From: an uncultured Deinococcaceae bacterium | GTDB taxonomy: Bacteria; Deinococcota; Deinococci; Deinococcales; Deinococcaceae | Assembly (NCBI GenBank): GCA_964252075.1 | Contig: CAXULY010000001.1 | Span: forward strand, 1 to 64,000 | Reading direction: 5' to 3' | Length of the DNA stretch: 64,000 bases | Shown here: positions 50,462 to 54,928 of the stretch, piece by piece | Numbering within the stretch: the first letter of the stretch is position 1 | How the letters are laid out: every line of letters begins with the position of its first letter | The notes under the pieces: model-generated | Seen by the model: the letters and a program-made list of their open reading frames with translations, nothing else | Told to the model about the DNA's origin: nothing | Database searches by the model: none | Translations under genes and position numbers: made by a program

Positions 50462-53400
50462 CTATTGGCACTGGCTGGGTTGCGGCGCGCCCTCGCGCCA
50501 GCCGCACCAGCGTTCGCGGTCCCCGCGCGTGCTGTACGGGCCGTAGAAGCCGTTCATGGCGTCGTTGAAGGCCACCACGAAGGTGATGTCCTCGCCGGGC
50601 TTGTTCGGCACCGTGACGTTCGCGCTCAGGTTGTAGTTGCCGCTCGTGCCGGAGATGCGCCCGCGCAGCTTGCCCTGGTCGCCCGTGCGGTCGTTGACGA
50701 AGGTGCCGGTCACCTCGTTGCCCTTCACGTTGAGTTTCAGGCGACCAAAGGGGTGCAGCCAGGTGCCGGAGAGCTGCTCCGCGCCGCTCGCGGCCTGCGT
50801 GGGGGCGCTCACGGCGACGTGCACGGTCTGCTGCACGCGCTGCCCGCCGCCGATCGCGGTGAGGACGTAGTCGGCGTCGCGCGTCACGCGCCGCGTGGCG
50901 CTGCCCTGCGGCTCCACGCTGCCCAGCCCACTCAGGGACACCCGCACGGCGCCCTCCACGCTCCAGGTGAGGGTCACGCGGCTGTTCTTCGGGACGCTCG
51001 CGTCACTCGCGGTGAAGCTCGTGATGGTGGGGGTGACGGTCGGGCGCTCGGGTTCGGGCGCCGGGGCGGGGGCCGGTTCGGGCGCGGGCGCTGGAGCGGG
51101 CGTGGGTGCCGGAGCGGGAGTGGGCGTCGCCTGCGCCGTCTTGGGCGGCAGGGCGGGCGGCATGCTGGGGTTCGCGAGGACGCTCACGCGCTGGCTGGAC
51201 TTCGCGGGCGCGCCACTCCCCACCGACTGAACCGTGAACACCGTGTTCTTCTTGATGGCAATAGCGGTCATGCCCTGCGCGGGGTACACGCGATTCATGG
51301 GGAAGATCTTGACGCGCTGCGCGCCGCGCACGTTCCAGCGCAGCACCACGCGCTGCCCTGCCGTGATCTGCGCGGGCGACACGCTGAACGCCACGACCTG
51401 CGCGGGCGCGGGCGGTATGGGCTTCGGCTTGGGTTTGGGCTGCACGACCACCGGGGCGGGCGTGGGCGCGGGTGCGGGCGTTGGGGCGGGTTTCGGCTGG
51501 ACCTGCGCGACCTTCGGCGCGGGCGTGGGCGCCGGGGTGGGTTGCGGCGCGGGCTGTGCGGGCGCGGGCGGCAGCACCAGGAGTGTCGCGGACTGCGCGT
51601 CCTGCGTGCCCTCGGCGTTGCGCGCGGTGAGCGTCAGCTGTGTGTTCTGCGCGGGCGCCGTGACGGTCATGCTGCCGGAGTTCGGGACGCTTTGCGTGCC
51701 GTTCAGGCCGTCCAGCGTGACAGACGTGGCGTTCTGCGTCTGCCAGGACAGCGTGACGCTCTCGCCCGTGCGGGGCTTGCGCGGCGTGACCTTGAAGCCC
51801 GTGACTTTCGGCGGGATGGCGCTCACGTTCGCGGCGCCGCTCGTCTCCACCTGCTGCTGGCCGTTCGTGGCGCTCAGCTTGTACACCACGCCCTGCTGCG
51901 CGGTGAGCTGCCTCGTGCCCTGCGCGGGCACCGTGCCGATCGGGTCGATGGTGACGCTGCTGGCGTTCGCGACCTTCCATGACAGCGTGATGGGGTCGCC
52001 GACCTGCGCATTCTCGGGGCTCACCTTGAAGAGCTCCACCACGGGCGCGAGGAGCCGCACGCTGGCGGTCTGCGTGACGTTCTGCGTGCCGACGTTCGCG
52101 GTGAGGGTGTACGTGGTGTCGCCCGTGACCTTCACCTGCTGCTGGCCCTGCGCGGGCACCGACCCGATGGGTTGCAGGTTCACGCTGTCCGCGTTGCGCA
52201 CCCGCCAGCGGACCGTGACGGTCTGGCCGGGCGCGGCCTGCGCGGGCGTTACCTCGAACAGGTCAATGCCGGGCGCGAGGAGCTTCACGCTGGCGCTCTT
52301 CTGCACCGCCTGCCCGCCGGAGTCCGCGCGGAGCGTGAAGGTGGTGTCCTGCGTGATCTTCTGGCGCAGCTCGCCCTTCGCGGGCTGCGTGCCGATGGGG
52401 TCGATCGTCACTTCCTTGACGTTCGCGACGTTCCAGCGCAGGGTGGCGGTCTGCCCGCTCGTGATGTTCTGCGGGTCCACCGAGAAGCTCTTCACGACCG
52501 GCGCGGGCACCTGCGGCGTGATCGTCATGAGGGTCTGCGCGGTCTTCACGCGCCCGTACGCGATGACCTGCACGTCCGTGGGCGCCGTGATGCCCTGCGG
52601 GATGATGAGCTTCTTGACGCCGCCGCCCACGCGTTTGTTCCAGGGCTTCACCAGCACGCTCACGGTGTTGCGCGTCTCGAAGTTCAGGGTGAAGGGCTTC
52701 CCGACGGGCGGGTTCTGCGGCGTGACGCTCGCCGTCACAATGGTGGGCGCCTGCAGCAGCCACCACACGATGCCGATCACCAGGATCGCGAGGATGGGGA
52801 GCGCCCACAGCGGCATCAGGGGCAGGTGCAGCAGGTTCACGTTCGCGGGCGCGCCGGGACCGCGGTCGTTCTCCGCGACCACGTGCAGGTGCCGGGGGCG
52901 CGGCGAGCCGATCCAGCGGATGGGGAGGCGCACGTTCATGCGGCTCTCGTAACTCTCGCCGGGCTGCAGCACGATGTCGCGCTGGAACTCGCTGACGCGC
53001 ACCTTGCCGATGCCTTCGCGCAGGCGCATGTAGTAGTTGTAGATGATGGTGCGGACGGGAATGATGTTGTGCAGGTTCCCGCTCGCCGGGATGTTGATCT
53101 GACTCCACGGGGACTGCAGGAACACCCCGCCCTCGTCGTCCTTCACGGTGGGGTTGTACGTGATGGGCACGTTGCTGTCGTTGCGCAGCTTGAAGGTGTA
53201 GTGCGTGCGCCGCCACGCGCTGCGGCGCTTCGGGGAGACCTCTACCGTGGTGTTCAGGAACTCCGTGACGGTCCACGTCATGGGCACGAAGCCGAACTCC
53301 GTGGGGTTCTCGCGGCTGCGCGCCACGACCTTCATCTCGTACACGCCCGCGTGGTGCTGGCTCTCGCGCGGCACAAGGACCCGCAGGGTCGTCTCGGCGG

Positions 53401-54928
53401 TCATGCCGGGGTTCAGCTGCACCTCGTGGAAGAGGTTCTGCACCCACTCGGCGGGCACGCCGTCCACCTCCAGCCGGAAGTGATCCACGGTGCGCCCGGT
53501 GTTCGCGAGCTGCACCTTCAGCAGGCGCGCCTCGCCGGGCTTCAGGGTGATGTCGTTGTCCTCGACGAGCACCCCGATGCGCGACTGCTGCACCACCCGC
53601 TGCGGTGGCTGCAGGCGCAGCCAGAAGGGCTCCACGCGCAGCACGCCGCCGCCTGGCCAGGGGGCGCGCGTGCGCGGTTCGAGCGGCACGCCGTTCAGGC
53701 TGGTGCCGTTCACGGTGTCGAGGTCCTGCACGAACACCGCGCCCTGCTCCACCTCGATGTTCAGGTGGTGGCGGGACACACCCGCGTGCTCCAGCACCAG
53801 GGTGTTGCCGGGCGCCCGCCCGAGCGTGATGGTGCCCTCGCGCAGCGGCTCCACCCGGATGAGGCGCCCGTCCGGCCCGCAGATCTGCACGCGCGGGAAG
53901 GTCGTGCGGTCCCGCAGCGGCTCGATGGGCGGGATGGGCGGCTCGGGGATGTCCGGCAGCACCACCGTGGGGTTCGGGCCCTGCGGCATGAGGCGCGACA
54001 GCACGCCCTGCAGCGCGGACTCCAGTTCGCGCGCGTCGCGGAAGCGGTACTCGGGCGCCTTCGCGAGGCAGCTCAACACGATCTCCTCGAGGTCCTGCGG
54101 GATGTCCACGCGGATCTGCCCGGGCGGGATGGGCGCCACGTGCTGGTGCTTCTCGATGGCGTCCGCGAGGTCGCGCGTCTCGAACGGCACCATGTTCGTG
54201 AGGAGTTCGTACAGGATCACGCCGAGCGCGTAGATGTCGCTGCGCACCTCGCTGCGCACGCCGCGGCACTGCTCGGGCGACATGTACGCGGGCGTCGTGA
54301 CGATCAGGCGGTCGTGCGTGCCATACGTGAAGGCCTGCAGTTCACCCACCCCGAAGTCCGCGACCTGCACGCGGTACGCCTGGCGGCCCAGGATGGCGCG
54401 CGCGGGTTGCAGCAGCAGGTTCTCGGGCTTCAGGTTGCCGTGCATGAGGTTCGCGTCGTGCGCGTACGCGAGCGCGCCCGCCACCTGCCGCGCGAGGTCC
54501 ACGGCGATCAGGAGGTCCACGAACTGCCCCTCGCGCGTGTGCTGCTGCAGGTAATGCCGCGCGGAGCCGCTCTGCGCGAGGGTCATGGTGTAGTGCGCCT
54601 TGTGCTCGCGCTCCACGAGCTCCCCGACGGGCAGGATGTTGCCGTGCGCGAGGCGCCGCCACTTCTCGAAGAGGCGCCGGAACTGCACCATCACCTGCGG
54701 CTGCGCGACGAGTTCGGGGTTCATGACGCGCAGGGCGCCCACCTGCGCCGCGTCGAGGTTCTGCGCGGCGTACACCGTGCCGAGCCACCCCTGCCCGAGC
54801 GTGCGCAGCAGCCGGAAGCCCTCGTACAGGGTGCTGCCGCCGGGCCGGTTGCCGCCCGGCGTGGGGGTGTCGGTGGTCGTGTCGTCCGGGGTGGGCCGCC
54901 CGCCCCGTTCATTCGACGTGTCGGTCAT
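50462..54928 (-). CDS. membrane Ser/Thr kinase-like (pseudokinase) protein with FHA domain and extracytoplasmic Ig-like repeats
   Basis: Hanks-fold motifs LGQGWLGTVY, HGNLKPENLL, ADFG, YMSPEQ and SDIYALG. FHA LGRAPGN...VSRHH...NGT, TM segment PLWALPILAILVIGIVWWLL, about seven ~75-80-aa beta repeats, and PA linkers. Confidence 0.9.
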   Translation of the reverse strand: MTDTSNERGGRPTPDDTTTDTPTPGGNRPGGSTLYEGFRLLRTLGQGWLGTVYAAQNLDAAQVGALRVMNPELVAQPQVMVQFRRLFEKWRRLAHGNILPVGELVEREHKAHYTMTLAQSGSARHYLQQHTREGQFVDLLIAVDLARQVAGALAYAHDANLMHGNLKPENLLLQPARAILGRQAYRVQVADFGVGELQAFTYGTHDRLIVTTPAYMSPEQCRGVRSEVRSDIYALGVILYELLTNMVPFETRDLADAIEKHQHVAPIPPGQIRVDIPQDLEEIVLSCLAKAPEYRFRDARELESALQGVLSRLMPQGPNPTVVLPDIPEPPIPPIEPLRDRTTFPRVQICGPDGRLIRVEPLREGTITLGRAPGNTLVLEHAGVSRHHLNIEVEQGAVFVQDLDTVNGTSLNGVPLEPRTRAPWPGGGVLRVEPFWLRLQPPQRVVQQSRIGVLVEDNDITLKPGEARLLKVQLANTGRTVDHFRLEVDGVPAEWVQNLFHEVQLNPGMTAETTLRVLVPRESQHHAGVYEMKVVARSRENPTEFGFVPMTWTVTEFLNTTVEVSPKRRSAWRRTHYTFKLRNDSNVPITYNPTVKDDEGGVFLQSPWSQINIPASGNLHNIIPVRTIIYNYYMRLREGIGKVRVSEFQRDIVLQPGESYESRMNVRLPIRWIGSPRPRHLHVVAENDRGPGAPANVNLLHLPLMPLWALPILAILVIGIVWWLLQAPTIVTASVTPQNPPVGKPFTLNFETRNTVSVLVKPWNKRVGGGVKKLIIPQGITAPTDVQVIAYGRVKTAQTLMTITPQVPAPVVKSFSVDPQNITSGQTATLRWNVANVKEVTIDPIGTQPAKGELRQKITQDTTFTLRADSGGQAVQKSASVKLLAPGIDLFEVTPAQAAPGQTVTVRWRVRNADSVNLQPIGSVPAQGQQQVKVTGDTTYTLTANVGTQNVTQTASVRLLAPVVELFKVSPENAQVGDPITLSWKVANASSVTIDPIGTVPAQGTRQLTAQQGVVYKLSATNGQQQVETSGAANVSAIPPKVTGFKVTPRKPRTGESVTLSWQTQNATSVTLDGLNGTQSVPNSGSMTVTAPAQNTQLTLTARNAEGTQDAQSATLLVLPPAPAQPAPQPTPAPTPAPKVAQVQPKPAPTPAPAPTPAPVVVQPKPKPKPIPPAPAQVVAFSVSPAQITAGQRVVLRWNVRGAQRVKIFPMNRVYPAQGMTAIAIKKNTVFTVQSVGSGAPAKSSQRVSVLANPSMPPALPPKTAQATPTPAPAPTPAPAPAPEPAPAPAPEPERPTVTPTITSFTASDASVPKNSRVTLTWSVEGAVRVSLSGLGSVEPQGSATRRVTRDADYVLTAIGGGQRVQQTVHVAVSAPTQAASGAEQLSGTWLHPFGRLKLNVKGNEVTGTFVNDRTGDQGKLRGRISGTSGNYNLSANVTVPNKPGEDITFVVAFNDAMNGFYGPYSTRGDRERWCGWREGAPQPSQCQ

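Follow-up and report, generated by a model that had tools for sequence, protein, structure and literature searches.

A conserved receptor-like pseudokinase-FHA protein encoded in the contractile injection system cluster of Deinococcus: a candidate membrane adaptor

What would a kinase-like protein that lacks several residues of catalysis do in the gene cluster of a contractile injection system (CIS)? The question is raised by a gene at 50462..54928 (minus strand) in a 64,000-nucleotide stretch of DNA from an uncultured Deinococcaceae bacterium (assembly GCA_964252075.1, contig CAXULY010000001.1, positions 1 to 64,000; hereinafter, the window). The gene is an open reading frame (ORF), supported by Pfam matches and by a third-position GC content of 0.96, as in the real genes of this window of ~70% GC, and encodes a 1488-amino acid (aa) bitopic receptor-like pseudokinase-FHA protein (P0001). 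Comparison with homologs indicates that its kinase-like domain is maintained in a non-canonical form, and the protein emerges as the best candidate for a link between the cytoplasmic CIS and the cell membrane. With moderate confidence, it can be proposed to serve the Deinococcus-type cytoplasmic CIS (lineage IId) as a membrane adaptor or trigger that either does not depend on phosphorylation or is phosphorylated in trans.

The kinase-like domain (aa 39-297; 54038..54814, minus strand, like all features of this gene) matches Pfam Pkinase with an E-value of 1e-30 (107.5 bits, with the cut-off at 31.7) and belongs to the PF00069 superfamily, given that the gathering score is passed and the model displays the bilobal kinase fold. 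A phmmer alignment with PknB of Mycobacterium tuberculosis (3f61, E 2.2e-29) brings R67, L86, G164 and N165 opposite K40, E59, R137 and D138 of PknB. The original prediction, made from the nucleotide sequence alone, included Asn at the position of the HRD Asp, Arg at the position of the beta3 Lys, and intact DFG and SPE motifs, all of which is borne out. The segment ALRVM (aa 65-69) contains Arg67 (CGC, 54728..54730) in place of the Lys of the PknB motif VAVK (generally, VAIK), and the catalytic loop HGNLKPEN (aa 163-170, 54419..54442) contains Asn165 (AAC, 54434-54436) in place of the HRD Asp, with Lys167 and Asn170 kept; DFG (aa 191-193, 54350..54358) and SPE (aa 217-219) are unchanged. Two additional losses had gone unnoticed: the alphaC Glu, the salt-bridge partner of the beta3 Lys, is replaced by Leu86 (54671..54673), and the HRD Arg by Gly164. 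Of the hallmarks of a catalytically competent Hanks kinase, the domain thus lacks the beta3 Lys, the alphaC Glu and the HRD Asp and retains the DFG Asp, the catalytic-loop Asn and the Gly-rich loop, and catalysis has presumably been lost. The Gly-rich loop, GQGWLGTVY, contains no Lys, which rules out a rescue of the WNK type.

A word-indexed protein search identified 35 further Deinococcus-type proteins, 34 of which were checked and show 48-79% identity over aa 1-460; their source name, “serine/threonine protein kinase”, is probably misleading for the Deinococcus branch. Including the window protein, all 36 contain Arg at beta3, Leu at alphaC and Gly in H-x-D, and the catalytic position is occupied by Asn in 24 and by Asp in 12. 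An orthologue (E <= 1e-170) is present in 35 of the 125 species-representative genomes of the Deinococcaceae family. Of the two substitutions named in the original prediction, Arg at the Lys position is conserved in these 35 species without exception, as is the Gly (35/35), but Asn at the Asp position is found in 25, with Asp in the remaining 10. At least five changes between Asp and Asn at this position are required by the maximum-likelihood tree, and one of these separates sister species whose terminal branches measure 0.03. The Deinococcus-type proteins have not conserved the pair of Thr residues found in the activation loop of active relatives.

The ORF is intact in 34 of the 35 species; in the remaining one (G076; locus L056, contig C2), the orthologue is frameshifted just 3′ of the transmembrane (TM) helix. 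This genome also has a split sheath gene, and the two defects reflect either decay of the cluster or assembly errors. The NG86 dN/dS of the kinase-like domain is 0.04-0.19 in 15 of 15 pairs, equal to or below the values for the FHA and immunoglobulin (Ig)-like parts, and that of the ectodomain is 0.09-0.54. Given these low values and the identical substitutions fixed across species, the domain is kept by selection: the loss of a residue of the catalytic triad is fixed in orthologues that evolve under purifying selection, which is the signature of a conserved pseudokinase. Orthologues with an intact Lys and HRD, next to which this copy would look like a decaying one, were not found among the 35 species. 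At the level of sequence, with three to four catalytic or regulatory residues lost, the pseudokinase assignment is well supported.

The gene is an integral part of the CIS cluster. On the minus strand, the order of genes is Pvc16 cap, AAA ATPase, gp25, Baseplate_J, an FHA domain fused to the baseplate wedge protein gpI/Cis12 (54925..55809, minus strand; Pfam FHA and Tail_P2_I, NCBIfam tail and CIS12 matches), the pseudokinase, the tube initiator and a VgrG-like spike. The stop codon of the gpI gene overlaps the start of the pseudokinase gene by 4 nt in the window, and likewise in 23 of 34 pairs. The order gp25-gpJ-FHA:gpI-pseudokinase-tube-VgrG is kept in 33 of the 34 orthologue loci that were fetched; in the exception (L043, a 10.5-kb contig with no N runs), no gpI match is detectable upstream of the orthologue. 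The family genomes with a full-length orthologous sheath are exactly those 35 (of 125) that have the pseudokinase orthologue, and ten further genomes of the family have partial or distant sheath matches only and no orthologue. Position and co-occurrence with the sheath confirm that the gene belongs to the CIS operon, as had been claimed, and identify it as a core or accessory gene of the lineage-IId Chloroflexota/Deinococcota cluster.

Relatives outside Deinococcus indicate the probable origin of this protein. In an initial scan of genome contigs, with a kinase-containing alignment and generic kinase motifs, 72 of 75 loci contained unrelated kinases, which left L072-L074 as useful. In three Chloroflexota loci (Thermogemmatispora, Anaerolinea and Anaerolineae metagenome-assembled genomes, or MAGs), a gene with a kinase-FHA-Ig-TM architecture directly follows FHA:gpI in a CIS cluster. 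The kinases of all three possess the Lys, the Glu and the HRD motif; the one from Anaerolinea has DLG instead of DFG, and the homologue from the Anaerolineae MAG contains two kinase domains, the second of which is degenerate. The alphaC Glu is present in most of the Chloroflexota-type homologues in the alignment, in contrast to the Leu of the Deinococcus type. These comparisons are best explained if the ancestor of the Deinococcus protein was an active receptor Ser/Thr kinase, of the kind located at the corresponding place in Chloroflexota CIS clusters. The CIS-linked relative from the Anaerolineae MAG (L074:7979-14773) is a 2264-aa giant with a canonical first kinase domain, a second one with HRS and DFS, four FHA domains and the Ig module; it also has a TM helix, and its ectodomain carries Asp-rich repeats of the calcium-binding type and a further C-terminal domain.

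The FHA domain together with two cytoplasmic Ig-like domains is the signature module of this family. A profile of the FHA-Ig module retrieves 1331 cluster representatives at E <= 1e-30 from a library that carries no gene context. Among the best 150 of these, a kinase-like domain directly precedes the module in 114, and 66 of the 114 are canonical at the Lys, Glu, Asp and DFG-Asp positions; the other 48 are not, nine of them by gaps or truncation only. Degeneration of the kinase thus recurs in the family. A later scan of metagenomes, for which the FHA-Ig module replaced the kinase-containing alignment as the query, yielded 43 FHA-Ig loci, 29 of which are directly preceded by gpI, gpJ and other CIS genes; three of the 29 are of the Deinococcus type (Arg and HG[D/N]) and 26 have A-x-K and HRD. 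Linkage of the family to CIS was verified for 34 + 3 + 29 loci only.

The change in the kinase is paralleled by a change in the putative reader of its product. The gpI FHA domain follows the canonical pattern GR..SRxH..S[SA]NG in each of the 17 non-Deinococcus loci that were aligned. The Deinococcus-type gpI (34/34 rows, eight of them realigned with the others) has GR..A[IV]RH and lacks the Ser-x-Asn-Gly motif. By this alignment, the phosphate-binding Ser and Asn of the baseplate FHA domain were lost in the same lineage as the Lys, Glu and Arg of the kinase. The N-terminus of gpI also shows a sub-threshold match to TIGR03354, the FHA model for type VI secretion systems (T6SS), with an E-value of 6.4e-10. 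A complex predicted for the cytoplasmic part of the pseudokinase protein (671 aa) and FHA:gpI (294 aa) received a score of 0.01, which is no usable answer and counts as evidence in neither direction.

The remaining parts of the protein fit a membrane receptor. An FHA domain with canonical residues, further beta domains, one TM helix and an ectodomain had been recognized in the original prediction, and Pfam, the alignment, hydropathy and AlphaFold2 agree on this architecture. The AlphaFold2 model of aa 30-700 (pLDDT 84) includes the full bilobal kinase fold, which Foldseek superimposes on PknB with target-normalised TM-scores of 0.79-0.88 over ~280 columns. The linker between the kinase-like and FHA domains is disordered (pLDDT <50 around Thr321) and contains the conserved motif GPxPT[VLMI][VR]L[PS] (53954..53980), with Thr321 present in 36 of 36 rows. 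The FHA domain (aa ~346-440, 53609..53893; Pfam FHA at aa 367-420 with an E-value of 1.2e-12, and the model) is of the phosphothreonine-binding type (PF00498), with GR at 370-371, SRHH at 385-388 and NG at 407-408; G370, R371, S385, R386 and N407 are unchanged in 36 of 36 aligned homologues. The motif pT-x-x-L is of the type preferred by FHA domains, and the Thr321 motif accordingly is a candidate pTxxL ligand; hypothetically, Thr321 could be phosphorylated by one of the canonical kinases of the genome.

Two cytoplasmic Ig-like beta-sandwich domains follow (aa ~451-699, 52832..53578; a FixG_C-like Pfam match at aa 472-537, the model and a profile search) and then the single TM helix (aa ~703-727, 52748..52822), which is the sole hydropathy peak (KD19 maximum 2.53). 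The ectodomain (50465..52747; AlphaFold2 model, pLDDT 86) consists of seven Ig-like domains and a C-terminal beta domain, in the order of five tandem Ig-like domains, a Pro-rich linker, an Ig-like domain, another Pro-rich linker, an Ig-like domain and the C-terminal beta domain, which is conserved and contains two Cys (aa ~1381-1481, 50486-50788). Because no signal peptide precedes the cytoplasmic-type kinase block, the predicted topology is N-in/C-out in the cytoplasmic membrane. A Foldseek search of PDB with the ectodomain model returned only generic tandem-Ig chains (GhpA, contactin, Robo, complement), which give no clue to a ligand, and an NCBIfam search with the protein found no family above the cut-off, hence no curated name.

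Taken together, these features are compatible with the following scenario. The protein would be a bitopic inner-membrane component, with the pseudokinase, the FHA domain and two Ig-like domains inside the cell and a jointed Ig chain capped by a small conserved domain outside, and a dedicated accessory component of the Deinococcus-type CIS. In the ancestral state, a threonine phosphorylated by the kinase would be read by the FHA domain of the baseplate wedge protein gpI/Cis12, which would bring the baseplate to the membrane receptor and license assembly or firing. In the Deinococcus lineage, the writer (Lys, Glu, Arg and often Asp) and the reader (Ser and Asn of the gpI FHA domain) would have been lost together. 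Because they degenerated together, the resulting contact, if kept, may be phosphate-independent, with the pseudokinase as a docking scaffold or conformational switch. Through its own canonical FHA domain and the invariant TxxL motif, the protein could remain responsive to one of the canonical kinases of the genome. The protein would then be a site in the cytoplasmic membrane where particles dock or fire conditionally, in contact with the baseplate via the FHA-bearing Cis12, and the long jointed ectodomain would either signal the state of the cell envelope or be coupled to it mechanically. That the protein binds gpI or the baseplate, and that it acts in membrane docking or triggering, are predictions from domain content and gene context. 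More tentatively, a kinase-FHA-Ig receptor read by the Cis12 FHA domain might represent an undescribed CIS transmembrane signalling module that decides on docking or firing, possibly for regulated cell death, the Deinococcus branch being a phospho-switch turned into a hard-wired pseudokinase scaffold.

Several observations weigh against this scenario or constrain it. The Gly-rich loop, DFG, the catalytic-loop Lys and Asn and [SA]PE are all conserved, and the catalytic Asp is kept in 10 of the 35 orthologues; weak or atypical activity, or ATP binding, is therefore possible, nucleotide binding in particular because the loop, DFG and the catalytic-loop Lys and Asn are intact. The FHA domain of the pseudokinase protein remains canonical, so that the system is not fully phospho-blind. 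Linkage to CIS is not exclusive in the family: 14 of the 43 metagenome loci have no CIS gene detectable by tblastn (five of the 14 had less than 2.3 kb of upstream DNA and two lacked the kinase domain), and a diverged 1292-aa stand-alone relative (L152:9916-13794, G122) is located among housekeeping genes in a genome with no match to this sheath. That relative keeps the beta3 Lys and has HGN, DVG, the FHA domain, a TM helix, an Ig ectodomain and a similar C-terminal domain. Finally, cryo-electron tomography of D. aquatilis, which possesses an orthologue of the pseudokinase gene (P0028), reveals CIS particles that lie free in the cytoplasm of intact cells, as described in the text of PMC12998442. 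Because these particles are unattached, a site at which docking or firing is conditional matches the evidence better than a constitutive anchor does. Of the proposal that the protein is a scaffold or sensor and possibly the membrane anchor of the CIS, the pseudokinase nature and the CIS membership stand; constitutive anchoring is disfavoured, and any anchoring role is a prediction.

The conserved motifs just listed could be taken to indicate an atypical yet active kinase, in which Arg67 stands in for the Lys and Asp or Asn is tolerated at position 165, and which phosphorylates itself or the baseplate in the manner of PpkA. Such activity would be consistent with the full fold, with the conservation of the Gly-rich loop, DFG, Lys167, Asn170 and [SA]PE in all orthologues, with Asp in 10 of 35 of them, and with the canonical FHA domain and invariant TxxL motif of the protein; HER3, with Asn at the same position, retains weak activity. 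This explanation appears rather improbable nonetheless, considering that both partners of the Lys-Glu salt bridge are lost in every orthologue (R67 and L86), that at least five flips between Asp and Asn, even between sister species, are unexpected for a residue that performs chemistry, that the two activation-loop Thr residues of active relatives have not been kept, that the presumed reader on gpI lost its phosphate-binding Ser and Asn in the same lineage, and that the cluster encodes no PP2C phosphatase. The opposite extreme, a decaying former kinase gene without a function, would account for the lost catalytic residues and for the one frameshifted orthologue of the 35, with its split sheath. 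It is already refuted by the conservation data, namely 34 of 35 intact ORFs, kinase-domain dN/dS of 0.04-0.19, identical beta3 Arg and Gly substitutions and a conserved operon position, and its probability is negligible.

Two other explanations accept the pseudokinase and differ in the role assigned to it. The protein might regulate CIS assembly at the cytoplasmic face, by binding or sequestering FHA:gpI or by nucleating the baseplate upon an envelope signal, so that the finished particle never attaches. In the T6SS, Fha1 acts at the assembly step. A similar point of action is described for EssB of the type VIIb secretion system (T7SSb) in the text of PMC9600267, and regulation of assembly would agree with the translational coupling to gpI (the 4-nt overlap) and with the particles free in the cytoplasm (PMC12998442, as far as the images described there go). 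We regard this as an unlikely but serious contender, given that a firing trigger would be just as compatible with the large jointed ectodomain and with the precedent of CisA; the present data do not separate a role in assembly from one in firing. Alternatively, the Ig-repeat part could be a tail-fibre-like, target-binding component of a released extracellular particle. Tandem Ig chains do resemble adhesins and fibre-like proteins, and no Afp13-type fibre gene is found among the Pfam matches of the cluster. Against this possibility, the N-terminal cytoplasmic kinase-FHA part, the absence of a signal peptide and the single TM helix point to the producer's own membrane, and the lineage is reported in the text of PMC12998442 as cytoplasmic, with particles that contract on lysis; a fibre is accordingly very improbable. 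The conditional membrane adaptor or trigger remains the preferred reading.

Potential sources of phosphorylation in trans are located elsewhere in the genome. In agreement with the original prediction that the window contains no active kinase or phosphatase, no other Hanks kinase or PP2C phosphatase was found there; a two-component His kinase and response regulator at 6120-8541 look unrelated. Across the whole 5.83-Mb genome (G000), the FHA profile detects only two FHA domains, those of the pseudokinase gene and of gpI. Six other Pkinase matches are found on other contigs, three of them with a canonical Lys, H-x-D and DFG, and two PP2C matches (PP2C_2, contigs C4 and C35), neither near the CIS cluster. 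The only adjacent kinase-phosphatase pair seen in the genome is a PP2C phosphatase gene adjoining a short Pkinase match (G000:C4:198241-199622), which is a possible source of trans-phosphorylation.

The other genes of the cluster were assigned by Pfam. Upstream of FHA:gpI, on the minus strand, are Baseplate_J (55806-57992), gp25 (57827-58246), the AAA ATPase (58396-60450) and the Pvc16 cap (60481-61356), and downstream of the pseudokinase gene, on the same strand, are CIS_tube, the tube initiator (49846-50421), and the VgrG-like spike (48187-49845). The sheath (62034-63620) and the first tube gene (from 63652, running past the window end at 64000) are divergent, on the plus strand. Past the window end (L151:4369-9300), there are two gp19-type tube genes, a 1643-aa eCIS_core protein and a 396-aa protein with no Pfam match. 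In two sister species (L045 and L046), 1.5-2 kb of extra DNA separates gpI from the pseudokinase gene.

On the other side of the cluster, the plus-strand gene at 39029-45655 encodes a 2208-aa Ala/Gly-rich protein (17% Ala) with a DNA/RNA non-specific endonuclease domain (aa 1380-1459), in a region where the AT skew is strong, reaching 0.50; next come small genes of the HEAT-repeat and DUF6966 types, at 45659-46162 and 46196-46648. According to tblastn, relatives of the 2208-aa protein adjoin the CIS cluster in several other genomes of the family (L040-L042, L050-L052), and the protein may be a CIS cargo, a toxin with immunity genes or a tape-measure-like protein. Between metabolic genes and this large gene, the minus strand encodes a 692-aa VWA-domain protein with a DUF4381-like segment (36900-38978), followed by a 194-aa protein with no Pfam match (36319-36903).

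The CIS of lineage IId (Chloroflexota/Deinococcota) has been imaged, and D. aquatilis and D. grandis assemble particles; in the text of the same study, the firing mechanism is left open by the authors, and no close cisA homologue is reported in Roseiflexus (Chloroflexota) (PMC12998442). Neither “kinase” nor “FHA” appears in the main text of that study, one supplement of which mentions phosphoglycerate kinase only, or in PMC12237407. Full-text literature searches, the scope of which does not extend to the labels of gene-map figures, retrieved no paper in which a CIS other than the T6SS is described as having a kinase or FHA component. The gene described here provides a concrete, genetically testable candidate for membrane recruitment or triggering of a cytoplasmic CIS, in culturable, harmless and particle-forming Deinococcus strains. 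Furthermore, the active kinase with a canonical reader FHA domain in Chloroflexota and the pseudokinase with a degenerate reader FHA domain in Deinococcus form a natural matched pair, which allows one to ask what a bacterial pseudokinase does after catalysis is gone.

Among known systems, the part proposed here for the pseudokinase protein corresponds to that of CisA of Streptomyces, a bitopic protein that is required for firing and contraction and is absent from purified particles; it is predicted to touch the peripheral baseplate wedge of Cis11 and Cis12 (PMC12237407). By domain make-up, on which the comparison is based, CisA is an analogue only: it has a disordered N-terminus and a periplasmic substrate-binding-like C-terminal domain and no kinase, FHA or Ig domains. 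The PpkA-Fha1/TagH-PppA pathway of the T6SS similarly combines a single-pass receptor-type Hanks kinase and an FHA protein in the cluster of a contractile machine, where an envelope signal leads to assembly or firing. Unlike in that pathway, the kinase here is degenerate and the cluster contains no PP2C phosphatase, so that the combination of an active kinase and PP2C is missing; FHA domains are fused to the kinase itself and to the baseplate wedge protein, and the machine is a cytoplasmic CIS of the phage-sheath type. EssB/YukC of the T7SSb has the same layout as the Deinococcus protein, with a pseudokinase in the cytoplasm, a single TM helix and a domain outside the cell. The secretion machine has YukC as a structural hub, and upon co-expression in E. 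coli the YukC pseudokinase domain binds FHA domains, those of YukB (EssC), according to the text of PMC9600267. The likeness is architectural only, given that the YukC/EssB profile has no Pfam match at E<=0.1 in the pseudokinase protein; YukC has no G-loop, VAIK motif or catalytic loops and does not bind ATP, whereas the Deinococcus protein, which is associated with another machine, retains the G-loop and DFG along with most of the catalytic loop.

With regard to input by phosphorylation, MviN/MurJ-FhaA of M. tuberculosis, with a pseudokinase domain in a membrane protein, can serve as a model for the trans-phosphorylation of Thr321. A phosphothreonine of the MviN pseudokinase domain, written by a separate kinase, recruits the FHA protein FhaA. 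In a recent atlas of bacterial serine/threonine kinases, with seven pseudokinase families and a main text in which the string “Deinococc” does not occur, MviN belongs to the family ActPs3, which has an attenuated activation loop, and KSR1 is named as lacking the VAIK Lys (preprint 10.1101/2025.01.12.632604, main text). Unlike that of MviN, the activation segment of the Deinococcus protein is of full length, and the context of the two proteins differs. The substitutions themselves are found at the same two positions in unrelated eukaryotic lineages, Lys to Arg in KSR and Asp to Asn in HER3, both of which act as scaffolds or allosteric partners.

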